Origin: a virus
Length of the DNA stretch: 64,000 nt
Strand: one strand, 5' to 3'
Virus record (IMG/VR): IMGVR_UViG_3300028840_006907
Location: 224,001 to 288,000 of that record
In this document: in pieces, positions 1,144-37,736 of the stretch
How the letters are laid out: every line of letters begins with the position of its first letter
Position numbering within the stretch: position 1 is the first letter of the stretch
Made by a program: the position numbers and the translations under genes
The notes under the pieces: model-generated
Told to the model about the DNA's origin: nothing
Databases searched by the model: none
The model's input: the letters and a program-made list of their open reading frames with translations, nothing else

Positions 1144-3036
1144 ATGAGTCTTTCTGAACTTTGTACAAATTATATAGGTTCTAATAGGTTAAAAGATGAG
1201 ACTGAGCGAAATATCATAGAATTTGCTGAGGCTCAATGGGGCCTAGGTATGGGTACTATGCCTGGTATCCCGCCTTTATTTCCTGTACAAAAGTTCATTT
1301 TTAAGACTTATTATAATATTCCTCTTGATAACGGTGATGACCGAATAATAATTGTTAAAGACAAGTTTAATGAGAAGGTCAGATACCGATTTAATGAGAA
1401 AGAATATTTAAATTTCTTGTTCAATGAAGGTCGTATAAATATCAAGGAGGTCACTGGAGACCCTAAAGATTCCAGAACTGACCTGGTATTAGTCATAGGA
1501 AGAAGAGGTCTAAAAACAAGTAGTATAGCGGTTTTAGTAAGTTTTGAAACTTACAAACTTCTTAAAAAAGTAAGTCCTCATGAGTATTATGGTATTATGC
1601 CTGATGATGAGATTCGGGTATCATGTGTTGCTACCAATAAAGAACAGGCTGGTGAACTCTTTCGAAGAATCAGTGGCCATCTAGAGCGTTCTGAATATTT
1701 TAAAAAATACCGTGAAAAACCCACATTGAGTTACATGAAATTAAGTACTCAACGTGATATTGAGGAGTACGGTCCTGGTAATAGATCCTCACTTCGTATT
1801 GTTGCCTCTCCCTGTACCGGTAGAGGACTTAGAAGTTATAATAATATCATAGCTGTTTTAGATGAGATGGCTCATTTCTTTGAGTCTGATACATCCACAG
1901 ATAAGTCAGATAAAGTGATTTATGATTCTGTTACTCCTTCTGTTGCAAAATTTGTCACTCCTGAAGGTGATCTTCATGGGAGAGTTATAAGTATATCATC
2001 TCCAAATGATCGATCAGGTAAATTCTATGAACTCTATGAGCGTTCCATGGAAGCTGATTGTGACAATATATTAATGATTCAGGCTCCTACCTGGGAAGTA
2101 GACTATACTCTTTCACCTAAATACCTAAGAGCGAAATATCTAGAAAATGCTGTTTCATATATGAGCGAGTTTGGTGCTGAGTTCTCTGATAGAGTGTCTG
2201 CTTGGATAGATAATGAGCAAATGTTAAGGATTAACATTATTCCAGGTTTGAAGTTAAAAAAGATAAGCTATGAGCGTACGCCTCATTTTATGGGTATTGA
2301 CGTTGGTCTTAAACAGGATGGAACTGCTATTGCAATTTGTCATATAGTAAAAGAAATGATTGGTGATATTGAAAGAAATTTGATTGAATTGGACTGCATA
2401 GATGCACGTTATGCAAAAGATGAGGATAAAGAATATTTCCATCCGGATGAAATAGCGGATTGGATAGCTACTTATAATGAGAAGTTTTACATTGTAAAAG
2501 GTATTATGGACCAATATTATGGTTTAGCTATGATACCTAAACTTCATGAAAAAGGTATAAAACAGATTAATGCAGCCCATTTCAGTCGGGATTTTAATTC
2601 AAAAGTATATCAAAATTTAATGTCGAAAATGCTCGATGTCTCATTAAGAATTCCAGAAGGTGATGAACATTTAGTTGATGGTAAAAAAACAAAGGATCTT
2701 GATTTAGTTACAGAAATGTTAAAGTTACGGGCTGTTACTCATTCAAAATATTTAATTACAGTAAAGGCTCCAGATGTAAAGAATGCTCATGATGATAGAT
2801 CTGATGCTTTTGCTCGTGCAGTCTATTTGGCTACTGAATATATGGCTTCTGGAGGTGGTATAGTAAAAAATAATCGTATTGAGAGTACTGGTAAAAACGC
2901 TTCTTATCGCCAGTATTATATGAAACAAAAAAGAAATGCGATGTATACAATGCGGCCTTCATCTGCCCTTCAAATGGAGATTTCAAGAAACAGACATTTT
3001 AATTCATTAATGAGCCAGCTCGGAACGAGGAGGTAA
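1144..3036 (+). CDS. terL: terminase large subunit (T4 gp17-like ATPase plus RNase H-fold nuclease)
   Basis: Deviant Walker A GRRGLKTS (compare T4 SRQLGKT); Walker B-like IIAVLDEMAHF; nuclease-type acidic motifs GIDVGLKQDGTAIAI and DDRSDAFARAVYLA; 630 aa. Confidence 0.75.
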   Translation: MSLSELCTNYIGSNRLKDETERNIIEFAEAQWGLGMGTMPGIPPLFPVQKFIFKTYYNIPLDNGDDRIIIVKDKFNEKVRYRFNEKEYLNFLFNEGRINIKEVTGDPKDSRTDLVLVIGRRGLKTSSIAVLVSFETYKLLKKVSPHEYYGIMPDDEIRVSCVATNKEQAGELFRRISGHLERSEYFKKYREKPTLSYMKLSTQRDIEEYGPGNRSSLRIVASPCTGRGLRSYNNIIAVLDEMAHFFESDTSTDKSDKVIYDSVTPSVAKFVTPEGDLHGRVISISSPNDRSGKFYELYERSMEADCDNILMIQAPTWEVDYTLSPKYLRAKYLENAVSYMSEFGAEFSDRVSAWIDNEQMLRINIIPGLKLKKISYERTPHFMGIDVGLKQDGTAIAICHIVKEMIGDIERNLIELDCIDARYAKDEDKEYFHPDEIADWIATYNEKFYIVKGIMDQYYGLAMIPKLHEKGIKQINAAHFSRDFNSKVYQNLMSKMLDVSLRIPEGDEHLVDGKKTKDLDLVTEMLKLRAVTHSKYLITVKAPDVKNAHDDRSDAFARAVYLATEYMASGGGIVKNNRIESTGKNASYRQYYMKQKRNAMYTMRPSSALQMEISRNRHFNSLMSQLGTRR

Positions 3037-3039
3037 AAA

Positions 3040-6000
3040 GTGTCGGAAGTTTATCAGGGTGATTATGCCCCTAATTTATATAATGAGGAAAAGCGTTATT
3101 ACTTATTTCAAGCACAACAGTTGACAAATCTAACTGATGCTGAACTTCGTGATTTACATAATATATCGAACACGTATGTCCGTCGTACAGTGCAAGCTCA
3201 AATTGGTGATTGTGCAATACAAGATGGTTATAAAATTGCTGAGAATACTTCGGATAAGTCTAACAATTTTCTTATAACAGGAGGAAGTGGTACTCTTGAT
3301 GATCCAGGGATGTATTATCTTAAAGGATATCGATTATTCCTTTTAGGTGATATAGCCTATAAAGATCAAACAGATACAGGTACTATTACCGATGACGGTT
3401 ATACTAAAACTATATTACCTGCTCTGACAACGCCTACTGGGGTCACCTCCACTTTAAATAGCCTTTCTTTAAGTAATCCCACTCTTATCTGTTGTGGTGA
3501 TACGAGTGCTATTGCTAACTCTTCTGATTGGGGTCGAAATTGGGTTGATAGAAATGCTATGACATCCCAAAATCTAAATGGTTCTTCTTTAGGAGACGCC
3601 TCAGTCGGTTATGCAGTTGGTAATGTGGGAGCTGTTCTTCGTACAACTGATAGTGGAAATAGTTGGATAAATATCCGAACAAGTTTACCAACTCTACCAA
3701 CAAATTATCAAAATGTTAATTTCTTTGATGCTTATTTTGTGAACTCTTCTATCGGATGGATCACGGGTCAAAGTGGTGCCATATTAAAAACAATAAATGA
3801 TGGGACTAGTTGGACTGTACAGGGATCTGGTGTCACTACTTCAGATTTAAGTGGTGTTCATGGGACTGGATTAACTGATGTGTGGGCTGTCGGTAGTAGT
3901 GGTATGGTGGTAAAAACGACTGATGGTACAACCTGGTCTCAACAAGCTAGTGGAACTCTTTTTAATTTATCAAGAGTACATGCTATTAATACATTGGTCG
4001 CTTATGCTGTTGGTAATAGCGGTACTATAATAAAAACAACGAATGGTGGTACATCTTGGTCTGCACTTACTTCTGATACTACAGAAAATCTTCGTGATGT
4101 TCATTTCACGGATTTAAATAATGGTTGGGCTGTTGGTGATAATGGTACGATTACCCGAACAGATGATGCAGGTTCAACCTGGGATTCTTCTACTATTGCC
4201 AGTGTCGATTTAAGAGCTGTTACTTTTTATGATACCACAGGATTTACTGCTGGTGGAAGTGGTGAGATTTACAGAACTCTTGATAATACAAATTGGGTGA
4301 AATATCGTACTGATTATGTTTACATTGATTTCCATCTAGCTGAGGTTTCAGGTGATGCCACCTCAGGTAGTGAATACATAGATACAAGTTTAGTGGATGC
4401 GACTGTAGGTTATCCAAGTGCCAATAGATTGAGGGTGGTCTCTGATGTAAAAGTGTCTGAAGGGTGGCCAGCTCCAGCCGATTACACCAATACTGATGCT
4501 ACCCTTCAGCATTATATCGCTCCTCTTGCGTCAATAGAGCGTTCGGTGGGTACAAGTGATATAACTTCAGCTAACATCACAGATTTAAGAACTGTTGTTC
4601 GTACTATTGGTGAGATTGATGCTGCCCTTAAAGACGGAAGTATTGGTACTTCTGCAATAGCTGATGGAGCTATTACCCCTGATAAACTTGATAGTACTGG
4701 CGATTATACAATGGGATCACTCAGTATCTTGGGAGATTCTTCTATTGCTGGTGATTTAACTATAGGCGGTATATTAGTTGTTAGTGATTATAGAACTAGC
4801 ACTATCATGGATAATCTTGTGGTACGGGGATCTGCTCAATTAGGTGATTCAACAGCTCCATATGAGGATAGTGTTAATATTTATGGTAATATTACTCAAG
4901 TATTAGATTCAACTAAAATCGCTTATGATATACAAACATCTTCAACAACTGATGCTTCTCCAATAATTAAAATTGTTTCTGATAGTACAGGTAGTGTATG
5001 GCATGTAGAAAGTAAATCTCAAACGACATCGAGTCTTTTTGATGCTACTACACAGAATATGGGGTATGATTTCCATTTAAATCATTTAGGATATGAAGGT
5101 GGCTTATTTAAATTAAGGGATGATGCAAGTAACCATACCATTACTATATCTAAGACAGCTCCAGGATTTAGAGGGTCTGTTTTAGATGTTACAAGTAATA
5201 GCAATGACCCAACAATAAATATCGTAAACAGAGCTTTATCTGATTCAACAAGTTTAAGTATTGACCAGACTCATGGGACCATGATTACTTTGAATACGTT
5301 GGGTGATGCTTCTGGTATCGATATTTATTCACAAGGCTCTGGAAGAGACCTACATATAGATCATTCAGGTACTTTAGGAATAGCTGTAGATATTACTAGT
5401 TCCAGTGCACAGGTTGCAATGAATCTTGTAAATCAGATGGGACCTGCTGTAGTAATAACTCAGAATGGTGATGATGAAGCTCTGTTGGTTTTAAATAAAG
5501 ATTCTACAACCTTAGGAAGAGCTTTAGAGATTAACCATAGAGGTAGTGATGTTGGATTAGGTGTTTATAATACTGGTACTGGAATGGGTCAGCTAATTTC
5601 ACATGTAGGTGATTCTACTCATCCTGCATTAGATATTTATGTAGCAGGGAATGAAAAAGGTCCAGCTCTTCGTATAAATAAGGCAAATGATGAAACTGGT
5701 GAAGGTATAAGAGTATGGAATCAAGGTTTTAGCGAATCCTTAAGATTAATTCAGGATAGAACCGATTCCTCAGCTACAGTACTTTTAATTGAAAGCCAGA
5801 GTATTGGTTATGATGTTAGCTCTAGTAATTGGAATATAGATAGCTCAGGTAATATTTATACCGCTGGAAGTATTACTTCTGATTCTACTGCTACTGTAAC
5901 AAGTTCTAAATTTGCTTTTGATAGTACTTATTATATGACTTCTACAGGGATGTATCTTGATAACAGTGGCTATGATTCCTCTAATCCTGCTGTAGCTGGT

Positions 6001-9000
6001 AGGGCGTTTATAGAATCAGGTTTTTTAAGAGTCAGTGACGGTACTACAGCTTCTCCAATACCTTCATGGGGTGCTACTGGTGCCACAGGAAATACTGGGG
6101 CTACAGGATCCACAGGGGCTACAGGATCAGGGACTCAAGGAACAACAGGAGTTCAAGGATCTGCCGGGGCTACTGGAGCTACTGGACCGGCTGGAACTGG
6201 TTCTACAGGAGTCCAAGGTGTCCAGGGTGAAACCGGTATTCAGGGTCTCCAAGGTGATACGGGTGTTAGTTTAGGAGCAACAGGCTTGCAAGGTATCACA
6301 GGTCTCAGGGGATTCACGGGACTGCAGGGTCAAACCGGTGTTGCTGGGGAAACCGGAGTTCAGGGAGTGCAGGGACAAACCGGAGCTTTTGGTGGCCCTC
6401 CAGGAGAAACTGGCGTGCAAGGTGTCCAAGGAAACACTGGAGTACAAGGAACTACTGGAGTTCAAGGATCAACCGGAGTTCAAGGAATTCAAGGTCAGAC
6501 CGGAATTCAGGGAATCCAAGGAAATACTGGAGTACAAGGAATTCAAGGTAATACTGGAGTACAAGGTCAAACCGGAGTAAGTGGAGAAACTGGAGTACAA
6601 GGAACTACTGGAGTTCAGGGTATTCAAGGTCAAACTGGTATAGCAGGTCAGACAGGTATAGCAGGTCAAACCGGAGTTCAAGGAATCCAGGGAATTCAAG
6701 GTCAAACAGGTGCCCAGGGTTTAACAGGAGTAGCAGGTGAGACTGGAGTCCAAGGATCTCAGGGAAATACCGGAGTTCAAGGTATCCAAGGGCATACGGG
6801 AGCTGGGATACAAGGTACTACTGGTGTTCAAGGTTTACAAGGTCAGACTGGCTCTCAAGGTACTACTGGAATTCAGGGAGAAACTGGTGTAGGTATCCAA
6901 GGTCAGACGGGTGTTGCCGGTGTTGATGGCCAAACCGGAATTCAAGGAATCCAAGGAACCACAGGAGTTCAAGGTGAAACAGGAACTCAAGGAATTCAAG
7001 GAAATACCGGAATTCAAGGAACTCAAGGAAGCACAGGAGTTCAAGGAGAAACTGGAGTTGGTGCTCAAGGAACTACTGGAGTGCAAGGAATACAAGGAAA
7101 TACTGGAGTTCAGGGAACAACCGGAGTTCAGGGAATTCAAGGTCAAACCGGTGTTCAGGGAACACAAGGAGAAACAGGTTATATAGATTCTTCCAGTGTT
7201 AATCATAACGCTCTTCTTAATTTAACTGTTGGTGATGACCATACTCAGTATGCTTTTTTAGCTGGTCGTACTGGTGGGCAAACTATAAATGGTGGTGATG
7301 CTGCTTCAGACGTTTTAACTCTTCAAAGTACTACTGATACTACAAAAGGGAACATCATTCTTAATCCTATTAGTGGGGATGTCCCTGGTAAAGTTGGTAT
7401 AGGAGTAACATCTCCGATTTATCAATTACATGTTGGAGAGATTTTAGATGGCGGTACTGTAGGTATATGTATAAATAACCAGTATACTGCAAATGGATCA
7501 GTTGATGAAACTGCTAGTTTAATATATAGATTTGGTAGGCCACTCAGTCCTCAATATAGAGTAGCAGGTCAAGTATTAGTAGGTAAGGAACAGGATTGGT
7601 GGGATTATAATAGTACTGACGCTTATATGGCTTTTCATACTACTCGTGATACAATTTCACGTGAACAGATGAGAATTAATGCTCAAGGTTATGTTGGAAT
7701 AGGTACAACAAATCCCCAAGCTAAGCTTCATGTAACGACATTTGCTCAATTTGATGAAGGCTTTTCAACTAATATCGGTATAGGTGTTACCGCTCCTCAG
7801 GCACAGTTACATGTCGGAGAGAGTGTAACTGATGGAGATGTTTCAATAATTGTGAATAACTGGTCTTGGACTGGAGGGTCTGTAGATGAGACAGCTAGTT
7901 TACAATTCCGTTTTGGGCCTCCTCCAAGTAATTATTCTGCTGGTAAAATTTCTGCTCATAAAACTTTAGATTATATGAGTTTCGATAATAGAGACTCTTA
8001 TATGACTTTTAGTGTTGTAAATAATCAATCTGAAGTTGAGCGTATGAGGATTTTAAATGATGGAAAGGTAGGTATTGGTACAACTGATCCTCAAGAAAGA
8101 CTGCATGTAATTGATAGGGGTCAATTTGATATGGGGCTACAACAACCTATTGGTATAGGTGTAACGGCTCCATTAGCTGAATTACATGTTGGTAATAGTA
8201 CTAATGGTGGTGATGTAGGCATTATTATTAATAACCAATACAATACTACTGGATCAGTTGATGAAACAGCAAGTTTAATTTATAGATTCGGTACAGTAGG
8301 AAGTGCAAATTATCGAGTAGCTGCCAGAATTTGTGCTCATAAAGAATTAGACTGGCAATCTTTTGATAATGTCGATTCAGCTTTAGCTTTTAGGACTACT
8401 CGAAATCAATCTGAAAATGAAAGAATGAGAATAACTAGTGAAGGTGATGTAGGAATTGGTACTGTCACACCTTCAGAAAAATTACATGTAGAAGGTAATA
8501 TTTATACTACTAATGGTTTTCTTGCTGGTGGGAACATCCAAATTGAAGGGGACTTTTTAGGAGGGACTGATGGTAATTCTAATTTAGGCTCTACTTCAAG
8601 AAGATTTAATAACCTTTATATGGCTTCTTCGATAAATTATAATTCTGATCTAACCTTTGATTGTACGGGTACCCATGTAACCCTTACAACTGGTGGTAAC
8701 GTAGGTATAGGAACTACAAATCCCCAAGGATTATTTCATGTTTCTGATGATACCAATGGTGGTGATGTAGGTATTGTTGTTAGTAATCGCTATATTGGTG
8801 GTGGGTCAGTTGATGAAACAGCTAGTATGATTTATCGTTTTGGCCATCCGTTAGGAGTAGCTAATAAAGTTGCAGCCAGAATAAGTGCCCATAAAGAATT
8901 AGATTGGGCAAACTCTAATAATACTGATGCTGCTTTGATTTTCTGGACTACTCGTGATGCTGTTGAACGACAACAGATGAGAATTGATAGCAATGGTTAC

Positions 9001-10053
9001 TTAGGAATCGGTATAACTAATCCTCAGGAAATATTACATGTAGATGGTAATATCGTAGGATCATCTGGTTCTAATTTAGGGTCTGCTGCATTAAGATTTT
9101 CTAATCTTTATTTGGCTTCTTCTATAAACTATAATTCTGATCTTAATTTTGATTCAACAGGAACACATGTCACTTTTACAACAGGTGGTAATGTAGGTAT
9201 AGGTACTACAGATCCGCAAGCATTATTACATGTCTTTGATAGTACTAACGGTGGTGATGTTGAAGTTATAATTACTAATGACTATTATAGTGTTAGTTCG
9301 TTGGATGAAACTACCAGTATAACTTTTCAAAATAGAGGTCACGATGGTAATAGGTATACTGCAAGTAGAATTCTTTGTGGAAAAGAAGGAGATTTTAGTA
9401 TCTCTGATAGAAAAGGTTATCTAGCTTTCCATACAGTTAATCAAAGTTCATTTGAAAGAATGCGAATTACTTATGATGGTAATGTCGGTATAGATACTAC
9501 GGCACCTTTAGATAAGCTTTCTGTCGAAGGTCAAATGTCTGTGACTCTTGCAGGTGATCGAAAATTTAAAGTAGATAGTACAGGACAAATTTATTCCGAT
9601 GCAGGTACATCAATATTTACTCCTGCTGACCTTGCTGAATGGTCAAAGGTAGAGGGGTATCTGGAAGAATATGAGTTAGGTATGGTAGTACAACAATCCT
9701 GTGTAGATTTAACCGTTAAGCTAGCTGATAGCCCTTCTGAGAGAGTATATGGTGTGGTTACAAACCGTGCCACATTTTTGGGAAGTCTTACTGGTATTGA
9801 TAAGAAAATATTAAAAGAATTAACGGATAGTGAGATAGAAGATGAGTTCAATGCCAAAAAAATAGCAATGGTAGGGCATGTTCAAGTTCTGGTAAAGGGT
9901 ACCGTTAATATAGGTCAGTCATTGACTCTTTCTGATAAGAAAGGAATAGCACGGGGAGCTACAACTTTTGAAGAAAAAGCTCTGGCTCTTGGTATTGCAA
10001 GAGAAAGTTATGATTCAACCGATATAGGACTTATTGAGGCGAGATTATTATAA
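3040..10053 (+). CDS. giant fibre/structural protein: N-terminal Asp-box (BNR) repeats, collagen-like G-X-Y tract, five repeats of a ~120-aa module, C-terminal domain
   Basis: Repeated TxDxGxxW motifs (TDSGNSW, NDGTSW, TDGTTW, TNGGTSW, DDAGSTW); about 375 residues of uninterrupted G-X-Y; five modules each carrying GSVDETASLIYRFG and VGIGTTNPQ..LHV. Confidence 0.8.
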   Translation: MSEVYQGDYAPNLYNEEKRYYLFQAQQLTNLTDAELRDLHNISNTYVRRTVQAQIGDCAIQDGYKIAENTSDKSNNFLITGGSGTLDDPGMYYLKGYRLFLLGDIAYKDQTDTGTITDDGYTKTILPALTTPTGVTSTLNSLSLSNPTLICCGDTSAIANSSDWGRNWVDRNAMTSQNLNGSSLGDASVGYAVGNVGAVLRTTDSGNSWINIRTSLPTLPTNYQNVNFFDAYFVNSSIGWITGQSGAILKTINDGTSWTVQGSGVTTSDLSGVHGTGLTDVWAVGSSGMVVKTTDGTTWSQQASGTLFNLSRVHAINTLVAYAVGNSGTIIKTTNGGTSWSALTSDTTENLRDVHFTDLNNGWAVGDNGTITRTDDAGSTWDSSTIASVDLRAVTFYDTTGFTAGGSGEIYRTLDNTNWVKYRTDYVYIDFHLAEVSGDATSGSEYIDTSLVDATVGYPSANRLRVVSDVKVSEGWPAPADYTNTDATLQHYIAPLASIERSVGTSDITSANITDLRTVVRTIGEIDAALKDGSIGTSAIADGAITPDKLDSTGDYTMGSLSILGDSSIAGDLTIGGILVVSDYRTSTIMDNLVVRGSAQLGDSTAPYEDSVNIYGNITQVLDSTKIAYDIQTSSTTDASPIIKIVSDSTGSVWHVESKSQTTSSLFDATTQNMGYDFHLNHLGYEGGLFKLRDDASNHTITISKTAPGFRGSVLDVTSNSNDPTINIVNRALSDSTSLSIDQTHGTMITLNTLGDASGIDIYSQGSGRDLHIDHSGTLGIAVDITSSSAQVAMNLVNQMGPAVVITQNGDDEALLVLNKDSTTLGRALEINHRGSDVGLGVYNTGTGMGQLISHVGDSTHPALDIYVAGNEKGPALRINKANDETGEGIRVWNQGFSESLRLIQDRTDSSATVLLIESQSIGYDVSSSNWNIDSSGNIYTAGSITSDSTATVTSSKFAFDSTYYMTSTGMYLDNSGYDSSNPAVAGRAFIESGFLRVSDGTTASPIPSWGATGATGNTGATGSTGATGSGTQGTTGVQGSAGATGATGPAGTGSTGVQGVQGETGIQGLQGDTGVSLGATGLQGITGLRGFTGLQGQTGVAGETGVQGVQGQTGAFGGPPGETGVQGVQGNTGVQGTTGVQGSTGVQGIQGQTGIQGIQGNTGVQGIQGNTGVQGQTGVSGETGVQGTTGVQGIQGQTGIAGQTGIAGQTGVQGIQGIQGQTGAQGLTGVAGETGVQGSQGNTGVQGIQGHTGAGIQGTTGVQGLQGQTGSQGTTGIQGETGVGIQGQTGVAGVDGQTGIQGIQGTTGVQGETGTQGIQGNTGIQGTQGSTGVQGETGVGAQGTTGVQGIQGNTGVQGTTGVQGIQGQTGVQGTQGETGYIDSSSVNHNALLNLTVGDDHTQYAFLAGRTGGQTINGGDAASDVLTLQSTTDTTKGNIILNPISGDVPGKVGIGVTSPIYQLHVGEILDGGTVGICINNQYTANGSVDETASLIYRFGRPLSPQYRVAGQVLVGKEQDWWDYNSTDAYMAFHTTRDTISREQMRINAQGYVGIGTTNPQAKLHVTTFAQFDEGFSTNIGIGVTAPQAQLHVGESVTDGDVSIIVNNWSWTGGSVDETASLQFRFGPPPSNYSAGKISAHKTLDYMSFDNRDSYMTFSVVNNQSEVERMRILNDGKVGIGTTDPQERLHVIDRGQFDMGLQQPIGIGVTAPLAELHVGNSTNGGDVGIIINNQYNTTGSVDETASLIYRFGTVGSANYRVAARICAHKELDWQSFDNVDSALAFRTTRNQSENERMRITSEGDVGIGTVTPSEKLHVEGNIYTTNGFLAGGNIQIEGDFLGGTDGNSNLGSTSRRFNNLYMASSINYNSDLTFDCTGTHVTLTTGGNVGIGTTNPQGLFHVSDDTNGGDVGIVVSNRYIGGGSVDETASMIYRFGHPLGVANKVAARISAHKELDWANSNNTDAALIFWTTRDAVERQQMRIDSNGYLGIGITNPQEILHVDGNIVGSSGSNLGSAALRFSNLYLASSINYNSDLNFDSTGTHVTFTTGGNVGIGTTDPQALLHVFDSTNGGDVEVIITNDYYSVSSLDETTSITFQNRGHDGNRYTASRILCGKEGDFSISDRKGYLAFHTVNQSSFERMRITYDGNVGIDTTAPLDKLSVEGQMSVTLAGDRKFKVDSTGQIYSDAGTSIFTPADLAEWSKVEGYLEEYELGMVVQQSCVDLTVKLADSPSERVYGVVTNRATFLGSLTGIDKKILKELTDSEIEDEFNAKKIAMVGHVQVLVKGTVNIGQSLTLSDKKGIARGATTFEEKALALGIARESYDSTDIGLIEARLL
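6070..7186 (+). repeat. collagen-like G-X-Y triplet-repeat tract (9/18-nt periodic) inside the 2337-aa fibre gene
   Basis: Direct reading: GxTGxQG codon repeats; produces spurious ORFs in other frames. Confidence 0.9.
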
Positions 10054-15925: not shown

Positions 15926-17462
15926 AAGATTTCCTCACGGGTAAAGGTGTATCCATGATCTCATATAGAAGATCGAGTTTTGATTTTCTGGATAGCAATG
16001 GAATTAATCCAGGCAATCCATAGTAATCGCTACCTTCAGGTTCATAGTAATCGAAAGGTATTCTAGCTTGTTTTAAATACATGCTGAATTCTTTACGACT
16101 CCATGAACTTGGAATGTAAATAATAGTAATAGTAGGAGTCACATTAAATTTTTTAACATAATTATCCCATATCTCAACGAAAAATGGATTATTATTTTCA
16201 CCTTCATCAGTGACCACTATTATCTGTTCTACATAATAGTTTTTTCTAATAAGGTAATCTAATGCTATACCTATGGAAGTCCCACCATTACTTTTTACAG
16301 GTCTGAAAGCCCTTTCCCAGGCAGACATATTCGGTTCATTAGCTGTGATCTCTCTGGCCATTGTATCAAAAGTAATAGCATAGAGAGGAGCTTCTGTAGC
16401 ACCTGAAATAAGAGCCGCAACATTTTTTCCGACTTCGATGGCTTGAGTCATAGAACCTGATTTATCGATAAAGACTGCAGTAGGTACTTTTATAACACCT
16501 TTCTTTTTAATTTGCTGATCTGCAATTTCATCGAGGATCTTTTGAGATTCCTCATTTTTGATCCGACCTGTTTTCTTTGCTTCTTTGGATTTTAAAGCTG
16601 ATACATTTTTAGCTTTTTTAGCTTTTTCCAATTTAGCCGTAATCAATGTTTTTGTATCCTCATTGTCCATGGCACCACGTTCTTCTAGGGAAGCATAGTT
16701 ATTAATAACTTCCTGTGGAGACATAGCATTGATTAGAGCAATCAGAATTGTAGGAGTGATTTGATCAACCAAACCTACAGCCACCGTATAAGGTACTTTA
16801 TGTTCTATAATCAGCTTTGCCACTTCAGTCGGATTATCAGCTTGTGCTATTTTTTCGAAAACATTTAATTTACTGTCCGTAGGACGTTCATTTCCGAAAA
16901 GAATCTTCTGAGCACGTTCACTAGGTGCTATACGAAGAGTAGCATATAATCCTTTAAGATCTTTTGGACTTTTTAGGGCAATAGCATCAAAAAGATCGTT
17001 GTTGGTTTCAATATATTGAAGAAATTTCTCAACATCCCTTTTAAAGGCAGTAGGAATATTTTTGTAAAGACCTACATTTTTTTCTTCAATTTTTACTTCA
17101 TCGATCATTTTTTTCTTCATTTTTATTTTTTTGCCCGTTTTATTTCTGATCTTTATTTTTTTACCTTTAATAAAACCGACCACACGTCTTTTAAGATATA
17201 CAGGTATTTCCCTGAAGAGGGCTAGCCCAACTTCACGGTTGTCAAGAAATTCATCAACAATAAGTGAACCGATGAATACTTCTTTATGATCCCGAATATC
17301 TCCATTCTTGTAGTACCAGCTTCCAAGGTGGGCATAAAACAGCGGATCTGCTTTTTGTAATTCAAGATGGGTATTTTTTAATTTATCTAGGTCCCGGTGA
17401 GGGCAACTCAGAAATGAGTTAAGCATGTTAACTCTGATATCATTTTCGTTAGCTTGGTTCAT
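15906..17462 (-). CDS. rsr: Ro60/Rsr-like protein (TROVE module plus C-terminal vWA domain with MIDAS motif)
   Basis: MIDAS motif AVFIDKSGSM in C-terminal third; IVVTDEGEN resembles Ro60 IVFTDNETF; N-terminal GSWYY motif resembles Ro60 GGTYY; 518 aa; structured tRNA-like RNAs encoded divergently. Confidence 0.7.
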   Translation of the reverse strand: MNQANENDIRVNMLNSFLSCPHRDLDKLKNTHLELQKADPLFYAHLGSWYYKNGDIRDHKEVFIGSLIVDEFLDNREVGLALFREIPVYLKRRVVGFIKGKKIKIRNKTGKKIKMKKKMIDEVKIEEKNVGLYKNIPTAFKRDVEKFLQYIETNNDLFDAIALKSPKDLKGLYATLRIAPSERAQKILFGNERPTDSKLNVFEKIAQADNPTEVAKLIIEHKVPYTVAVGLVDQITPTILIALINAMSPQEVINNYASLEERGAMDNEDTKTLITAKLEKAKKAKNVSALKSKEAKKTGRIKNEESQKILDEIADQQIKKKGVIKVPTAVFIDKSGSMTQAIEVGKNVAALISGATEAPLYAITFDTMAREITANEPNMSAWERAFRPVKSNGGTSIGIALDYLIRKNYYVEQIIVVTDEGENNNPFFVEIWDNYVKKFNVTPTITIIYIPSSWSRKEFSMYLKQARIPFDYYEPEGSDYYGLPGLIPLLSRKSKLDLLYEIMDTPLPVRKSFDRKKR

Positions 17463-17483
17463 AATATCTCATCCTCCTTATGT

Positions 17484-17813
17484 TCAGGTTTCAATTTTTC
17501 CGAAAGTAGCATTTGGTCTAACTGTAATGTTACCATTTTTATGGTGTTCAACAACTAATTCAGCAAATTCTGATGCTGGTCTATCATAATGATCTACTAA
17601 AGCCAATTTAATTTGTTCACCAGTTATATTATCCGATGTGATCTCGGTTCCTGGTTCAATCCCGAGTTGTTCCCATCTGTCTTCTGGGAAAAGATCTTTG
17701 AGATTAATATCTTCAGTTTGACCATCATACATTATATGGACTTCACTCATATGAGCCTCCTTGTAATAAGTTAAAAAAAGAGTCCCGTATATTATACGAC
17801 ACGAGATTAACAT
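17484..17813 (-). CDS. hypothetical small acidic protein; true start probably at internal Met (MSEVH) preceded by AAGGAGG
   Basis: ORF track 109 aa; strong SD upstream of internal ATG near 17750. Confidence 0.4.
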   Translation of the reverse strand: MLISCRIIYGTLFLTYYKEAHMSEVHIMYDGQTEDINLKDLFPEDRWEQLGIEPGTEITSDNITGEQIKLALVDHYDRPASEFAELVVEHHKNGNITVRPNATFGKIET

Positions 17814-17867
17814 TTCATTAAGTAAAAAATTGGGTAGAATATAAATTCTTGTGTGTCATCATGGTAA

Positions 17868-17896
17868 ATAACTTTTTTAAAAAAATTATTGACACA
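17868..17896 (+). promoter_or_regulatory. sigma70-like promoter (TTGACA, 17 nt spacer, TATATT) upstream of the tRNA and structured-RNA array
   Basis: Direct reading of consensus -35 and near-consensus -10 with 17 nt spacer, about 60 nt upstream of tRNA. Confidence 0.6.
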
Positions 17897-17955
17897 CTTA
17901 AAATTTATGGTTATATTATTGACAGTTCTGCACTCTAACTTTTGATGCTTACATA

Positions 17956-18032
17956 GAGAAAATAGCTCAGTTGGTCAGAGCGCGAGATTTAGGTTCTTGA
18001 AGTCTTCGGTTCAATTCCGAATTTTCTTACCA
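17956..18032 (+). tRNA. canonical tRNA, class I; hand-folded anticodon UAG (decodes CUA) with encoded CCA
   Basis: Hand fold: acceptor GAGAAAA/TTTTCTT, D-arm GCTC-AGTTGGTCA-GAGC, anticodon stem CGAGA/TCTTG with loop TTTAGGT, T-arm TTCGG-TTCAATT-CCGAA, discriminator A then CCA. Confidence 0.7.
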
Positions 18033-18081
18033 TAAAATTAGCACCTTCAACTTGTGCAGAACTACTTAAACCAAGAAATAA

Positions 18082-18199
18082 AAGTCAGACATTCTAATTA
18101 TTAGGGCGTACATGGCGTTAAAACCATGCTTCCTGCAGAAATCAGGAAGCAATCTCTGGGCCAAGGCTCAGGGGCGCACTGATGACTTATGTCTGACTT
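18082..18199 (+). ncRNA. structured RNA element (Y RNA-like, non-tRNA-like) closed by a 9-11 bp terminal helix
   Basis: Terminal inverted repeat AAGTCAGACAT/ATGTCTGACTT; internal hairpins CATGG/CCATG and GCTTCCTG/CAGGAAGC; shares TCTAA..GGGC.TACA motif with downstream tRNA-like units. Confidence 0.4.
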
Positions 18200-28200: not shown

Positions 28201-31200
28201 ATTATTTAGATTCAACCGATGTGACTCTTAATATAGGGCAAGAATTTCTTATTCGAGTTGAGAATAAATCGGGTGGAGCAATAGTAGATGGTCAAGCAGT
28301 CTACGTCACTGGTTCTAATGAAGATGTCCCTGAAGTAAATCTAGCAAAAGCAGATTCTTCAAATACTTCTGAGGTTTTAGGTATTGCTACTCAGGTAATT
28401 GAAAATGATACGCAAGGTTATGTTACTTGTGCTGGAAAAATACGTAACTTAAATACTAGTGATTGGACTTCAGGAGATTTACTTTATTTATCTGATAAAA
28501 CTGCTGGTGCATTGACCAATGTTCAACCTTCAGGTAATAGTAATATATTTAGTGTTCATATAGGTCTTGTTATAAGATCACATGCTAGCGATGGTGTTAT
28601 TTTTGCTCACCGTCATATTCCTCATTACCGTCCAGAACAGTTAAGAGATACCACTGCATCTTCTTTAACTGATGGTCAGGTTTTATCTTATGAAAGTAGT
28701 ACAGATAGATGGATAAATAGCACTTTACCTTCAATTACACAATCTATAGATAGAAATGAACCTGGTGGTTTTGTCAACAGAACAGACAGTACAGTAGGTT
28801 TTACTGAATCTACTCGTACTTTGCAAGTTACAACCGCGAGTTCTTATGATATCTATCAGGCTGGTACTAAATATACAATTAATGCAACCGATTCTACTCA
28901 AATTCCTGATACAAATGGTTTGCACTATATTTATTTCGATACCACTAATATGACTGTACAAACGAATCCAGCACTTCAGAATATTCTAGATATCATATAT
29001 GAAAAATCTCTTATTGCTGCGATATATTGGAACTCTTCCGATGATAGAGCTATTATAACCAATGATGAACGTCATGGTATTGTGATGGATGGTAGGACCC
29101 ATTCTTATCTTCATACTACTAGAGGAACTCAATATACATCACCAGGCTTAACTCCTGGAGATTTTGATATTGATGGAGCTGGAAGTAATGACAGTGCCAG
29201 TCAAATGAGTATTTCTGATGGGCAAATACAAGATGAAGATATTTGGTTTGAAATTCAAGATGGTAATCCTCAAATATTAGATCCTATAGCTGAAATTCCT
29301 GTTATTTATAAAGATGGTGCAGGAGCTGAATGGAAAATAAAATATTGGACAGCTTCATGGGCATCTGCAACCTCTTATCCTACTGGTACTATAATAAGAG
29401 AGAGTAATTCTTATTTTAGATCTAGTGGAGGAACTTCAGGTGGTGCTCTTCCTGCTTTTTCTGCAAATCGTGAACCAGGTGATACTATTGTTGATAATAC
29501 AATTACGTGGACAAATGTTGGTTCTCCATTGTCTCCTGTGATTAATTTTGTGGGAGGTAATTATAGATTAGCATATAATCAGTTTACTGGTGGGGCATGG
29601 CAACAAACCGAAGTAACAAATGGTAATTATGTTCTTACTCATATATTTGCTACGACTGATATTTTTCATCCTATTATGGCTATTCAAGGTGAGAATGAGT
29701 ATGGTAATGTTGCTGCAGCTAGAGCAGGAGCTTTAACAGAACTAGATAGTATTGTATTGTCTGGATTGGATTTTCCTGAATCAATATTTCTTGCTACAGT
29801 TATTTTTCAGACTAATAATACTTATACTAATCAAGTAAAAGCTCGAACTATCTCAACTGATACAGGTGATGATTTTATAGATTGGAGATTTTCTCAAATC
29901 AATGCAGCCTCAACAGGTGATCAAGGTCCTCAAGGAGAAACTGGTGTTCAAGGGGTACAGGGTGAAACCGGAGTACAGGGTGAAACCGGAGTAGCAGGAG
30001 CAACTGGTGTTCAAGGAATACAAGGCCAGACTGGAATCCAGGGAGAAACTGGAATTCAAGGAGCCACAGGTGTTGCCGGAGCAACTGGTGTTCAAGGGAT
30101 CCAAGGTCAGACTGGAATCCAAGGAGAAACTGGAATTCAAGGAACTACGGGAGTAGCAGGAGCAACTGGTGTCCAAGGAATCCAAGGAGAAACCGGAATT
30201 CAAGGAGAAACCGGAATTCAAGGAGCAACTGGTGTTCAAGGTATTCAAGGAACAACCGGAGTTCAAGGAATTCAGGGAACCACAGGAGTTCAGGGTGAAA
30301 CCGGAGTCCAAGGAATTCAAGGAACCACAGGAATTCAAGGAATTCAAGGAACCACAGGAGTTCAGGGTGAAACCGGAGTCCAAGGAATTCAAGGAACCAC
30401 AGGAATTCAGGGTGAAACCGGAATTCAAGGAATTCAAGGAACCACAGGAGTTCAGGGAACCACAGGAGTTCAAGGAATACAAGGAACCACAGGAGTTCAG
30501 GGTGAAACCGGAGTCCAAGGAATTCAAGGAACCACAGGAGTTCAGGGAGAAACTGGAGTTCAGGGGATCCAGGGTCAGACTGGAATTCAGGGAGAAACTG
30601 GAGTAGCCGGAGCAACTGGAGTACAGGGCCAAACAGGAGTTCAAGGAATCCAAGGTCAAACTGGTATACAGGGAGAAACCGGAGTAGCCGGAGCAACCGG
30701 AGTACAGGGTCAAACAGGAGTTCAAGGAATCCAAGGACAAACTGGTGTTCAAGGAGCAACCGGAGTAGCCGGAGCTACTGGAGTTCAGGGAGAAACAGGA
30801 ATTCAAGGAATCCAAGGACAAACTGGTATACAGGGAGAAACCGGGGTAGCCGGAGCAACCGGAGTACAGGGCCAAACAGGAGTTCAAGGAATTCAAGGAA
30901 ATACTGGTGTTCAAGGAGCAACCGGAGTTCAAGGAACTCAAGGAGATACTGGAGTTCAAGGAACAACTGGTGTTCAAGGTGAAACCGGTTTAGAAGCAGC
31001 TTATCATTTCTTTGCGGATCAGTTGGATAGTCCTAATAATGCTGATTGGGCTGTTAATGCTCTTGCTCCAGCTTCTGCTGATACTACAAATAATGCTCTT
31101 GTTGTACGTCGGTTTGATGATACGGATGAAGAAGGTGTAGGATTTATGGTAAATATTCCAACAGGAAGGACAAATATAGTATTTGGATTTAAGAGTAGGG

Positions 31201-31487
31201 CTGAAACAGCTCCTGGATCGGCGCATAATGTAAAACCAAAGGTATATGTCAGGGAAATACCTGATAATACTACTGTGGAAAGTTGGTCTTCTGGTTATGA
31301 TTTAAATGCTTTAAGTATGCCAACAAATACCTATTTTCAATATGATTCTCAATCTGTAGCTTTTACCGCTCTTGATATTACAGGTGGGAGATTGGCTCAA
31401 TTTGAAGTAACAAGAGATCATACGGGTGTAACTCCTGATTTAACTGGTGACTGGGACTTGCTAGAGCTTAATGTTTCATTTACCTAG
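22251..31487 (+). CDS. giant collagen-like repeat protein (3078 aa) with interspersed duplicated globular domains and a C-terminal non-collagenous domain; probable virion fibre
   Basis: RBS AAGGAG upstream; five long G-X-Y tracts; duplicated domain A (FAGFNYKAKTD... and WAGFSYNAKTD...) and domain B (PNWIDFVPQASAPSH... and VNYIDYEPQDTVPSH...). Confidence 0.8.
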   Translation: MAKTKRKWIELDWYNPNALRAQDIPYDQTESVKDAIDRAASGVLGPTGTTGSTGSTGSTGPTGPTGATGATGAGIQGETGVAGVQGATGTGGGGDTGVQGETGLPGATGIQGTTGIQGTTGIQGETGIQGHTGTVGTTGVQGETGSQGTTGIQGETGVKGETGIQGQTGIAGGAGFPGATGVQGETGVQGTTGVQGETGVQGTTGVAGATGVQGTTGVQGTTGIQGETGVQGDTGVGATGIQGTTGIQGQTGVQGITGAYGGPPGETGVKGETGVQGATGIQGLQGLQGTKGETGTQGIQGQTGVQGETGVQGQTGTGAPGATGVQGQTGIQGTTGIGLGSTGVAGATGIQGTTGVQGRTGVQGFTGAAGLGETGIQGATGVQGATGIQGTTGAGIQGATGISGDTGVQGATGIRGTTGAGIQGATGVQGIQGQTGAQGETGVQGETGIEGSQFAGFNYKAKTDNQSDTDPGIGNLKWSAVAQVTSSELYVDDADVNSTDLSNFYLTLKAADSLRIVRMEDPSQYQIFNITNVTDRTGWFRLSVTPVVSGGSTFSLNDNIILIFSISGPRGQTGVKGETGIQGTTGVAGATGVQGQTGIQGQTGIQGIQGQTGIQGQTGIQGQTGIQGQTGVGAQGATGVAGQTGVQGETGIQGQTGAGIQGTTGVQGVQGLTGVQGQTGAGIQGETGVQGTQGLTGIQGQTGAGIQGETGVQGNTGAFGGPPGETGVQGETGAQGLTGVQGQTGAGIQGATGIQGVTGVQGQTGAGIQGVTGIQGQTGIQGQTGVAGQTGVQGIQGQTGVAGQTGVQGIQGQTGIAGQTGVQGIQGQTGIQGQTGAGIQGTTGVAGATGVQGIQGQTGAGIQGTTGVQGTTGVQGETGTGIQGETGTQGIQGQTGIQGQTGIQGNTGVKGETGVQGFPGPQGTKGDTGAQGIQGETGTQGIQGQTGVAGETGVQGQTGTQGIQGQTGVAGATGAGIQGQTGVQGIQGQTGIQGQTGVQGETGIEGSLWAGFSYNAKTDDQSDTDPGTGNLKWSTVAQVNAGELYVDDTDQYSIDLSNFYLTLKAGDSLRIIRQEDPSQYQIYNITNVTDRTGWFRLSVTYVTSGGSTFSLNDNIILVFVKAGIQGQTGAQGIQGQTGVQGIQGQTGVQGATGTQGIQGPQGQIGLQGTTGVQGETGVQGTQGQTGIQGTTGAGIQGQTGVQGIQGQTGIQGQTGAGIQGATGIAGIDGQTGIQGETGIQGQTGAGIQGATGIAGIDGQTGIQGETGIQGQTGAGIQGETGIQGIQGLTGIQGTTGAGIQGETGVQGTQGQTGVQGQTGAGIQGETGVQGTQGQTGIQGQTGAGIQGVTGIQGIQGQTGIQGQTGAGIQGETGVQGETGIQGQTGAGIQGTTGVQGVQGLTGVQGQTGAGIQGETGVQGTQGLTGIQGQTGAGIQGETGVQGETGIQGQTGAGIQGVTGIQGQTGVQGTTGIQGQTGVGIQGVTGVQGIQGQTGIQGQTGIQGETGVSGATGIQGIQGQTGIQGQTGVQGETGVQGSTGVLGDPNWIDFVPQASAPSHQEARLFYDSTDHSLSYYNEESDVTLNLGRELYIRVYNATVSTITNGQVVYVTGVAAGYPTIDLADGSDLTKTNNIGVATHNIEASTFGYITLFGLVRDINTNAFSAGDEVWLSESTPGGYQSFAGTYAVKIGYVVVSDTLNGSIMVAMGDTEATIAGLNDVNLTSISDGQYLQWDSDSTKWVNVSESPQGDTGIQGATGVQGIQGTTGVQGATGVQGIQGTTGIQGQTGVQGETGIQGTTGVQGETGTAGIDGQTGVQGETGIAGIDGQTGVQGTTGVQGIQGTTGIQGETGTAGIDGQTGVQGETGTAGIDGQTGVQGTTGVQGTTGIQGTTGIQGTTGIQGETGTAGIDGQTGVQGTTGIQGETGVQGTTGIQGETGVQGTTGIQGETGVFGIVNYIDYEPQDTVPSHLEGRTFYDSTDHSLSYYLDSTDVTLNIGQEFLIRVENKSGGAIVDGQAVYVTGSNEDVPEVNLAKADSSNTSEVLGIATQVIENDTQGYVTCAGKIRNLNTSDWTSGDLLYLSDKTAGALTNVQPSGNSNIFSVHIGLVIRSHASDGVIFAHRHIPHYRPEQLRDTTASSLTDGQVLSYESSTDRWINSTLPSITQSIDRNEPGGFVNRTDSTVGFTESTRTLQVTTASSYDIYQAGTKYTINATDSTQIPDTNGLHYIYFDTTNMTVQTNPALQNILDIIYEKSLIAAIYWNSSDDRAIITNDERHGIVMDGRTHSYLHTTRGTQYTSPGLTPGDFDIDGAGSNDSASQMSISDGQIQDEDIWFEIQDGNPQILDPIAEIPVIYKDGAGAEWKIKYWTASWASATSYPTGTIIRESNSYFRSSGGTSGGALPAFSANREPGDTIVDNTITWTNVGSPLSPVINFVGGNYRLAYNQFTGGAWQQTEVTNGNYVLTHIFATTDIFHPIMAIQGENEYGNVAAARAGALTELDSIVLSGLDFPESIFLATVIFQTNNTYTNQVKARTISTDTGDDFIDWRFSQINAASTGDQGPQGETGVQGVQGETGVQGETGVAGATGVQGIQGQTGIQGETGIQGATGVAGATGVQGIQGQTGIQGETGIQGTTGVAGATGVQGIQGETGIQGETGIQGATGVQGIQGTTGVQGIQGTTGVQGETGVQGIQGTTGIQGIQGTTGVQGETGVQGIQGTTGIQGETGIQGIQGTTGVQGTTGVQGIQGTTGVQGETGVQGIQGTTGVQGETGVQGIQGQTGIQGETGVAGATGVQGQTGVQGIQGQTGIQGETGVAGATGVQGQTGVQGIQGQTGVQGATGVAGATGVQGETGIQGIQGQTGIQGETGVAGATGVQGQTGVQGIQGNTGVQGATGVQGTQGDTGVQGTTGVQGETGLEAAYHFFADQLDSPNNADWAVNALAPASADTTNNALVVRRFDDTDEEGVGFMVNIPTGRTNIVFGFKSRAETAPGSAHNVKPKVYVREIPDNTTVESWSSGYDLNALSMPTNTYFQYDSQSVAFTALDITGGRLAQFEVTRDHTGVTPDLTGDWDLLELNVSFT
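22380..23590 (+). repeat. collagen-like G-X-Y triplet-repeat tract 1 of the 3078-aa gene
   Basis: Direct reading of GxTGxQG codon periodicity. Confidence 0.9.
23950..25260 (+). repeat. collagen-like G-X-Y triplet-repeat tract 2
   Basis: Direct reading. Confidence 0.9.
25610..26870 (+). repeat. collagen-like G-X-Y triplet-repeat tract 3
   Basis: Direct reading; near-identical 60-nt blocks repeated. Confidence 0.9.
27490..28100 (+). repeat. collagen-like G-X-Y triplet-repeat tract 4 (GTAGIDGQTG subtype)
   Basis: Direct reading. Confidence 0.9.
29920..30980 (+). repeat. collagen-like G-X-Y triplet-repeat tract 5
   Basis: Direct reading. Confidence 0.9.
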
Positions 31488-34878: not shown

Positions 34879-34881
34879 TAA

Positions 34882-37173: not shown

Positions 37174-37220
37174 TTATAAAATTTACATATAAGATCTATA
37201 TAACATATAAGGAGGTTCAA

Positions 37221-37736
37221 ATGTATAAAACAGCATTAGTATGTGGAGTCTGGGACAAATTGCATGAAGGGCATAAAAATATAATTAAATATTCTATAGA
37301 AAATTCTGAATTACTGAAAATTTTTGTATTAGAAATTAATATACATGATAGACATGAAGAGCCTTTTATACCTTATGAAGAAAGAAAAAAAACAGTCGAA
37401 AATTATGTCCTTTCTTTAGGGGCAAGAGATAAGGTACAAATAATAGGAAAAAAAGATGCTACGGAAGTTATGGTATTGGATGAATTGAGAACTGTAGATT
37501 GCGCCTTTGCTTGTGCTAAAGATAAAAATCAGCAAATTTTAGAAATGATAAAAATAACTCAAGATAGAGTTGCTAAATTAGAAGGCCCTGATGGACGTAA
37601 GCCATTTGTTATGGAATGGGTAGATCCTGTGAAAAATGATGAAGGAAAAATAATCTCTTCAAGTAAATACAGGAAAAAAAGCCGTTTAGAAAAAGAAAAG
37701 AGAGTAAATTCTTCAGGTGGATATGGTCGATTTTAA
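37221..37736 (+). CDS. putative nucleotidyltransferase (cytidylyltransferase-like HxGH family)
   Basis: N-terminal CGVWDKLHEGHKNII matches G.FD..H.GH signature; 171 aa. Confidence 0.45.
   Translation: MYKTALVCGVWDKLHEGHKNIIKYSIENSELLKIFVLEINIHDRHEEPFIPYEERKKTVENYVLSLGARDKVQIIGKKDATEVMVLDELRTVDCAFACAKDKNQQILEMIKITQDRVAKLEGPDGRKPFVMEWVDPVKNDEGKIISSSKYRKKSRLEKEKRVNSSGGYGRF

Follow-up and report, generated by a model that had tools for sequence, protein, structure and literature searches.

A 2337-residue propeller–collagen–capping-loop protein from an apparently huge uncultured phage: a probable chimeric fibre with a divergent Peptidase_G2-like C terminus

Introduction

The mosaic adhesive trimer (MAT) fibres of Bdellovibrio bacteriovorus (Protein Data Bank (PDB) entries 8OND, 8OML, 8OL4/8ONF, 8OJN/8ONB/8ONC and 8ON4) are built from repeated capping-loop β-helix domains of ~115–135 amino acids (aa) (PMC10769870). 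Their crystal structures are intertwined trimeric β-helices with edges closed by capping loops; these loops are shared with S74 fibres (K1F and T5) and with MyRF, their consensus has been printed as V-G-G/N-pi-x-x-P-x-x-x-L, and in Bd3182 the cleft between two of them is the proposed ligand site (PMC10769870). The S74 fibres K1F endosialidase (3GW6) and T5 pb1 (4UW8) are composed of an N-terminal anchor, a functional or propeller domain, a capping-loop stalk and a C-terminal self-cleaving chaperone, and the L-shaped T5 fibre pb1 may have a collagen-like proximal part (PMC4690869). In phi29 gp12, the C-terminal domain, a Peptidase_G2 domain (PF11962; 3GQ7–3GQK, 3SUC), is needed for trimerization and is afterwards cleaved off (PMC3357383), and mature gp12* ends at residue 691 (PMC6542822). 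Here we describe a gene for a 2337-aa protein on positions 224,001 to 288,000 of the IMG/VR virus record IMGVR_UViG_3300028840_006907. This stretch of 64,000 nucleotides (nt) is referred to as the window, and coordinates are counted from its first letter.

The protein follows the same order of parts as K1F endosialidase and T5 pb1, with self-cleavage of its chaperone predicted. It differs from the S74 fibres in that its chaperone is of the G2 type, with neither an S74 domain nor SDxxxK, and in that its propeller is seven-bladed and Ycf48-like as opposed to the six-bladed sialidase propeller. Every part of it belongs to a known class, and no new kind of machine is involved. The novelty lies in three points: stalk modules of the S74 type are here joined to a cryptic branch of G2-like chaperones, the N-terminal part represents a fibre family specific to megaphages, and a cassette swap is clearly documented.

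Domain architecture of the fibre protein

We consider it probable that the protein builds, as a homotrimer, a very long fibre for host recognition, with a G2-like chaperone and a chimeric origin. Nearly every residue of what would be a 2337-aa "hypothetical" protein could be assigned to a domain, which provides an annotation template for similar giant fibres from metagenomes. The open reading frame (ORF) and its parts are as follows.

3040–10053, + strand: fibre ORF, 2337 aa, a single open frame with a GTG start
3040–3444, + strand: aa 1–135, conserved N-terminal region, proposed virion-attachment part (family conservation)
3445–4314, + strand: aa 136–425, seven-bladed Ycf48/BNR (Asp-box) β-propeller (PF14870, PDB profile, AlphaFold2, Foldseek)
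4315–4599, + strand: aa 426–520, second conserved β-rich segment flanking the propeller (65% mean identity, AlphaFold2 strands)
4600–6069, + strand: aa 521–1010, family-specific shaft region (hydrophobic periodicity, AlphaFold2)
6070–7185, + strand: aa 1011–1382, collagen-like triple-helix tract (PF01391, count of runs and breaks)
7186–7383, + strand: aa 1383–1448, post-collagen linker (HNALLNLTVGDDHTQY...) (sequence only)
7384–7734, + strand: module 1, aa 1449–1565, capping-loop β-helix domain
7765–8109, + strand: module 2, aa 1576–1690
8140–8490, + strand: module 3, aa 1701–1817
8491–8691, + strand: spacer 1, aa 1818–1884, with NLYMASSINYNSDLTFD; the same element occurs in the related protein P0002
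8692–9042, + strand: module 4, aa 1885–2001
9043–9183, + strand: spacer 2, aa 2002–2048, with NLYLASSINYNSDLNFD
9184–9525, + strand: module 5, aa 2049–2162, the most divergent copy
9526–10050, + strand: aa 2163–2337, divergent Peptidase_G2-like domain, putative C-terminal intramolecular chaperone (hhalign, Foldseek)
9622–9642, + strand: aa 2195–2201, P-A-D-L-A-E-W, predicted autoproteolytic site (cut A2196↓D2197; E2200)

An earlier note, made from the letters of the window alone, had proposed a modular phage fibre with Asp-box repeats, a collagen tract and five repeated modules, and had suggested a domain search. All three repeat types pass profile searches, and the reading as a phage fibre agrees with a context of terminase, portal and prohead protease genes and with matches to tail-fibre PHROGs through the collagen and the modules. 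The parts of that modular combination therefore stand; what the note missed is that the modules are common capping-loop domains, that the C terminus is cryptically G2-like and that two families are fused.

Capping-loop modules

The five modules, each of ~115 aa, share 41–59% pairwise identity in a near-gapless alignment. Each holds S[VL]DET[AT]S and E/QxMRI and ends with a GIGxTxPxxxLHV loop, and because each of the five also begins with one, there are 10 capping loops in total. The ~120-aa modules with VGIGTTNPQxxLHV described earlier from the letters were thus recovered. Another duplicated element, NLYxASSINYNSDLxFD, is present in each of the two spacers. Only the window copies have the SVDETAS motif, and the best match outside the protein, P0001, shows 35% identity to the modules; that the copies are closer to each other than to P0001 indicates internal duplication.

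Searched against the PDB, a profile of the five window copies matched the Bdellovibrio MAT fibres 8OND (Bd2133; E 2.6e-18) and 8OML (E 3.6e-10), as well as the MAT structures 8OL4, 8OJN and 8ON4. The capping-loop consensus of MAT and S74 fibres is the same as the GIGTTxPxxxL motif of the window. As judged from these profile matches, the modules are homologues of trimeric β-helix domains bounded by capping loops, and they would take up the intertwined three-chain β-helix fold. MAT fibres and the window fibre are both mosaic, with an exchangeable C-terminal end and the loop GIGTxxPxxxL in common. MAT fibres differ in being surface proteins of bacteria that have a signal peptide and, at the N terminus, a conserved domain of ~130 aa; unlike the window fibre, they have no collagen, propeller or G2-like domain, and their ends are S74 domains or adhesive tips.

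The module family is huge: at E ≤ 1e-3 it counts 78,641 cluster representatives, and a single protein can hold as many as 35 matched stretches. The profile used on the representative library (640 positions) included modules of P0001 and P0002; it gauges module abundance well, and the 13 further proteins with the C-terminal domain that it yielded are no clean census of that domain. Among the cultured relatives of the modules are cyanophage and pelagiphage tail fibres and the PHROG tail-fibre families 9942 and 18345, and module homologues frequently end in Peptidase_S74 (PF13884).

The C-terminal domain

The last 175 aa gave no sequence match in Pfam, PHROG, NCBIfam or the PDB, including a PDB search with the profile of the C-terminal family. 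PF13884 gave no match to C-terminal segments at E ≤ 10, and there is no SDxxxK anywhere in the protein. Homologues of the domain are few; it always lies at the extreme C terminus of capping-loop proteins, and it is 46–78% identical across fibres with different upstream parts.

For comparison with known chaperone domains, 19 sequences (the window protein and 18 relatives) were aligned by hhalign with nine Peptidase_G2 domains, from phi29, Goe1, SPbeta-like, phi105, three staphylococcal phages, Cobetia phage Carin-5 and Prochlorococcus phage P-SSP10. The two sets matched with a probability of 92% and P 5.4e-7 over 158 columns, which is the whole domain; the real alignment scored 50.9, as against 12–24 for the reversed and ten column-shuffled controls. 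Foldseek matches of the C-terminal model include the phi29 gp12 C-terminal fragment 3GQH (E 7e-3, TM 0.43–0.46) and 3SUC. Both the gp12 domain and the window domain are β-rich, measure ~140–160 aa and lie at the extreme C terminus, after a trimeric (in the window, predicted) β-helical part. The motifs (S/A)↓D-x-A-E-aromatic (arrow, cleavage position), hGVhS/T..A and hVGhhGQh.V+h..oV..G are collinear between the two. The window domain shows ~18–20% identity to G2 domains and is without their insert of ~27–55 residues; it follows capping-loop modules, whereas the gp12 domain follows a single-chain pectin-lyase-like β-helix. From these alignments we conclude that aa 2163–2337 form a divergent intramolecular chaperone of the G2 type.

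Self-cleavage is predicted, by analogy with gp12, between A2196 and D2197. Residues D2197 and E2200 align to D692 and E695 of phi29 gp12 (motif W-S691↓D692-F-A-E695-Y). The P, A, D, A, E and W of the window motif are invariant in a 6-sequence alignment and are kept across the 19-sequence alignment, save for G in place of P in P0307. In the window protein and 14 relatives the motif lies 141–148 aa from the C terminus, and in seven ORFs on viral contigs its D lies 140–149 aa from the end; between it and the last capping loop there are anywhere from 33 to 752 aa.

These same residues might instead stay on the fibre as a distal adhesive tip and never be released as a chaperone, which we regard as rather unlikely. 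There are precedents for such an end: MAT fibres without S74 end in diverse retained β-sandwich "NS74" tips (PMC10769870), and the auto-chaperone domain of the P22 tailspike stays uncleaved (PMC3357383). The best fold matches of the model, trimer-forming decoration proteins, would also suit a retained tip. Set against this are the D-x-A-E motif, conserved throughout the family at the position of the gp12 scissile bond, and the fixed length after it beside a preceding part of 33–752 aa, a pattern expected of a processing or chaperone unit and not of a fast-evolving receptor-binding tip. The identity of the domain among fibres with differing upstream parts (46–78%) also speaks against a retained tip.

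Homologues of 172–184 aa that consist of the C-terminal domain alone were considered as separate chaperone genes. This was rejected and they were treated as truncated gene calls, because P0242 and P0244 lie within 72 nt of a contig end and P0243 is chimeric. The putative G2-type family, comprising the window protein and 18 relatives, with seven IMG/VR loci on contigs of up to 424 kb, had been missed by Pfam, and its predicted cleavage site is precise.

The N-terminal family and the β-propeller

A search of 5.8 billion protein clusters identified 24 proteins that share aa 1–1010 collinearly at 45–78% identity. Of these, 23 cover 94–100% of the region and P0144, the shortest, covers 78%. Most run on into collagen of varying length and then into unrelated C termini. 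The window protein thus belongs to a megaphage-specific, terminase-adjacent family of propeller–collagen fibres, which is defined here.

Mean identity within the family is highest in aa 1–135 (64%) and aa 426–520 (65%), and the propeller between them is the most variable part (41%). This pattern suggests that the two conserved flanks together serve for attachment and that the propeller is inserted between them, exposed and quick to evolve. Neither flank has a counterpart in the databases searched: aa 1–135 gave no Pfam, PHROG or PDB match, and aa 426–520 no database match. Pfam and NCBIfam searches with the isolated N terminus and mid-region gave nothing apart from the propeller. In AlphaFold2 models, aa 50–110 reach a predicted local distance difference test (pLDDT) value of 72–89, and aa 426–520 are modelled as strands at 67–89.

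In the propeller, five strict Asp boxes, [ST]x[DN]xGxx[WFY], lie at aa 161, 202, 251, 333 and 374, confirming the earlier count of at least five TxDxGxxW repeats. Two degenerate boxes (KTTDGTTW at ~292 and TLDNTNW at ~413) maintain the spacing of 39–49 aa, so seven blades are counted. Pfam PSII_BNR (PF14870) scored 77.6 bits on the isolated segment and 65.7 on the whole protein (cut-off 27), and profile matches in the PDB were to Ycf48 (5OJP/2XBG, E 1e-25). AlphaFold2 with the family alignment modelled the propeller at a pLDDT of ~90; Foldseek again placed Ycf48 first (E 9e-18, TM 0.75), followed by GH74 enzymes and WD40 proteins.

The photosystem II (PSII) assembly factor Ycf48/HCF136 (2XBG, 5OJP, 5OJR) likewise is a seven-bladed BNR propeller, with 19–20% identity to that of the window, which is embedded in a fibre with no PSII role implied. 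Against the NCBIfam equivalog NF010237 the propeller scored 81.5 bits, below the 326-bit cut-off, and it is therefore a domain relative and no Ycf48 orthologue. Ycf48-like domains are common in bacterial type IX secretion system surface proteins, and their presence in a phage fibre is not new, as they are already known from phage virion proteins: the cyanophage "baseplate wedge initiator" (S-SSM7, S-CAM9), the S-CBWM1 BNR protein and an uncultured marine phage "PSII stability/assembly factor". With these the window protein has the propeller alone in common (29–36% identity over ~140 aa), the domains on either side of it being unrelated.

Among Asp-box propellers are the GH33 sialidases and the GH74 xyloglucanases. 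The propeller could accordingly be an enzyme, a sialidase or GH74-like depolymerase, and the protein a tailspike-like depolymerase akin to K1F endosialidase. GH74 structures are indeed among the fold matches (E ~1e-10), and the order of propeller, stalk and cleavable chaperone parallels the endosialidase. The top sequence and fold matches, however, are non-enzymatic Ycf48 proteins, there is one seven-bladed propeller as against the tandem pair of GH74, and no sialidase is among the 50 fold matches listed. Neither [FYW]R[IVL]P nor R[IV]P, the motif of GH33 sialidases or endosialidases, is present in the fibre protein. Across 25 sequences the propeller residues that never vary are mostly the Gly and Trp of the Asp boxes and blades, together with Leu, a single Thr and a single Arg, where sialidases have an arginine triad; an acidic pair is not conserved. 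Because Ycf48 is the top match, the invariant residues are mostly Gly and Trp and the FRIP motif is absent, an enzymatic role is unlikely, and we give the depolymerase reading very little weight. Binding of carbohydrate or another ligand by the propeller is plausible and is treated as putative.

Beyond the second flank, aa ~700–915 of the shaft consist of strand repeats of ~11 residues, with a hydrophobic autocorrelation peak at lag 11 (r 0.31). AlphaFold2 modelled aa 611–910 at a pLDDT of 62–87, with nearly no DSSP secondary structure in aa 582–930; aa ~700–915 reach 68–87 without intrachain secondary structure. The model suggests that the shaft chain would need partner chains to form its strands.

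The collagen-like tract

The collagen-like tract of 372 residues holds 120 G-X-Y triplets and matches PF01391 at E 2e-47 (159 bits; cut-off 27.2). It had been taken for ~375 residues of uninterrupted G-X-Y; the tract itself is real, but it consists of eight runs parted by seven register breaks of 1–2 residues (TQ, ST, L, P, IQ, IQ and AQ). Only 3 Pro occur in it, the X position is mostly Val or Ile, and the Y position is 42% Thr and 42% Gln. The coding DNA is made up of tandem repeats of 9, 18 and 27 nt. Long Pro-poor G-X-Y tracts are also found in collagen-like phage tail fibres (PHROG 6320, 5073, 1806 and 30509), the similarity being confined to the collagen repeat. For the linker that follows, aa 1383–1448, no family match was found. 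A collagen triple helix rises 0.286 nm per residue, and at this value the 372 residues of the tract would by themselves reach a length of about 106 nm.

A second giant collagen ORF lies at 22251–31487 (+). Its 3078 aa comprise five collagen blocks (1779 aa in G-X-Y runs) with globular inserts between them, two pairs of which are duplicated (aa 454–567 with 1009–1122, and aa 1545–1747 with 1955–2150). A check of this ORF for the capping-loop module and the G2-like domain found neither, and only collagen is common to it and the fibre. Between the two collagen-rich genes, 19016–21643 (+) encodes an 875-aa protein matching a PHROG β-1,4-glycosyltransferase family (E 2.5e-44); one might speculate that it glycosylates the Thr-rich collagen tracts. 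Downstream of the giant collagen gene, 31499–38959 (+) holds four ORFs (385, 740, 763 and 407 aa) with overlapping weak matches to the same "virion structural protein" PHROGs (8510 and 21223); these may be a set of paralogues, structural or fibre-like in kind.

Chimeric origin

No capping loop was found in the 24 N-terminal homologues or in the seven IMG/VR loci of the propeller–collagen family. Conversely, seven IMG/VR ORFs that end in the G2-like domain, on contigs of up to 424 kb, have 2–10 capping loops and no collagen. The closest relative of the window protein, P0121, is 76% identical and collinear to aa ~1192, including the same collagen irregularities; beyond this point, which is inside the collagen, it diverges and ends after a short tail. 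From these three observations, the window protein is fused from two fibre families, which meet in the collagen or in the post-collagen linker. In this event a terminase-adjacent propeller–collagen fibre gained the distal part of a capping-loop β-helix fibre with a G2-like chaperone.

Five IMG/VR contigs of 71–424 kb (L026 and L029–L032) encode fibres of 1312–1501 aa with 5–10 capping loops and the same G2-like C-terminal domain. These are candidate donors of the distal cassette.

A natural cassette swap between two fibre families, in or just past the collagen, bears on the evolution of host range in huge phages and is relevant to the engineering of chimeric fibres. As a tentative suggestion, which we rate as possible but short of probable, a previously unrecognized marine and environmental G2-like branch replaced S74 as the folding nucleus of capping-loop fibres, and collagen serves as a recombination splice site at which distal cassettes of stalk and chaperone are grafted onto a lineage-specific anchor. 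If the replacement of S74 by G2 is true, the two chaperone classes are interchangeable cassettes.

Genomic context

Two features immediately upstream of the fibre gene are relevant here.

1144–3036, + strand: large terminase subunit (PHROG, tblastn, conserved synteny)
3028–3033, + strand: ribosome-binding site AGGAGG, read from the sequence, 6 nt before the GTG

The AGGAGG overlaps the 3′ end of the terminase gene, and the GTG start is backed by N-terminal residues (G7, Y9, A10, P11 and others) that are invariant in the 24 homologues. ORF 1144–3036 matched PHROG terminase large subunit families at E 1e-12. By tblastn it showed 35% identity over 91% coverage to the uncultured 485-kb phage LR745208, and 27% over 87% to the annotated terminase of the 309-kb Tunturiibacter phage Tunturi_5; a PDB sequence search with it returned noise only. 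The fibre gene does sit directly after the terminase, as had been stated from the sequence, beginning 4 nt past it. This position is kept in all 10 distinct related loci examined, namely seven IMG/VR loci, L001 (143-kb contig), L002/L003 (260-kb contig) and L018. In each of the seven, a terminase homologue (49–69% identity) ends just before the fibre; in L001, L002/L003 and L018, the same pair of genes for 178 aa and ~630 aa (terminase) precedes it, the pair being scored only where enough upstream sequence was present. The order was not found in the more distant huge phages Tunturi_5 and LR745208.

The exact fibre protein is recorded on the 469,617-bp NCBI contig JAEORW010000001.1 (GCA_016840655.1), and genes for a portal and a prohead protease are present in the window too. 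A megablast search of 1144–6000 against 50,697 phage genomes gave no match, which argues that there is no cultured close relative. With structural genes present, a terminase nearest to those of 485-kb and 309-kb phages and a contig of this length, the source appears to be an uncultured huge phage (megaphage) of roughly 470 kb.

That the record was deposited as a genome assembly, and that many bacterial proteins, the Bdellovibrio surface fibres among them, contain the module, could be taken to mean that the gene belongs to a bacterial chromosome or to the remnant of a prophage and encodes a cellular adhesin, not a virion component. We find this barely credible given the terminase, portal and prohead protease in the window, the relatives that have this terminase neighbour on viral contigs of IMG/VR and a terminase closest to those of 300–485-kb phages.

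Where on the virion such a fibre would sit is a separate matter. The gene lies between the terminase and a replication block and not within any recognizable tail module, and this position is conserved; the N terminus matches no known tail-fibre anchor; and a second collagen protein, of 3078 aa, is encoded in the window. These points are consistent with a capsid (head) fibre or another non-tail appendage for reversible long-range adhesion, in place of a primary tail receptor-binding protein. We hold this to be rather unlikely, as nothing positive ties the N terminus to a capsid protein, the identifiable relatives of the distal parts are all annotated as tail fibres, neck appendages or adhesins, and BNR propellers occur in cyanophage baseplate proteins.

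Proposed build and assembly

In the host-recognition fibre that we favour, aa 1–135 and 426–520 would anchor the protein on the virion, be it at the tail or at the capsid, and each chain would display one variable Ycf48-type propeller, giving a trimer with three propellers near the virion end. The β-strand shaft (aa ~520–1010) and the ~106-nm collagen helix would carry the five trimeric β-helix domains away from the particle. Scaled from the 6-nm domain of Bd3182, the five modules would add roughly 30 nm, and with the other parts the fibre would exceed 150 nm. What the data show is the nature of the domains, their homologies, the gene order and the fusion of two families; the trimeric state, attachment, cleavage and receptor binding are inferred from these.

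For assembly, the gp12 precedent suggests that the G2-like domains of the three chains would associate first and set the chain register, after which the five β-helix domains and the collagen would fold towards the N terminus. The chaperone would then cut itself off between A2196 and D2197, freeing a fragment of ~15.5 kDa, and the mature tip would be module 5 plus ~34 residues. Release of the gp12 C-terminal domain reportedly depends on ATP.

Several observations weigh against this proposal. No tail-gene cluster could be identified around the fibre gene, a PHROG scan of aa 1–1010 in four segments gave no match, and the structural role and the attachment site on the virion are ones that we infer. 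The homology of the modules to known structures, on which the trimeric fold rests, covers mainly the second half of each module. For the C-terminal domain, Pfam Peptidase_G2 (PF11962) gave no match at E ≤ 10, with phi29 gp12 as a control at 310 bits; hhalign of the 6-sequence alignment against the single gp12 sequence was insignificant, and the match became significant only with 19 sequences on one side and 9 on the other. The AlphaFold2 model of this domain is weak (pLDDT 63), and its best Foldseek matches, the decoration proteins of capsids, rank above gp12.

Other genes in the window and in a related locus

A tRNA-Leu gene (anticodon TAG) at 17956–18032 (+) lies in the gap between a leftward replication block and the rightward structural block. 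The portal-like protein encoded at 43131–46484 (+) is unusually long (1117 aa); its portal homology is limited to aa ~700–1000, and it carries an N-terminal extension of ~700 aa without assigned nature. In the 143-kb contig L001, a 595-aa TROVE/Ro60 and vWA protein is encoded at 16389–18176 (−), a few genes downstream of the fibre and beside a UvrD-type helicase; no TROVE-domain gene was noted in the window, where no specific check for one was made.

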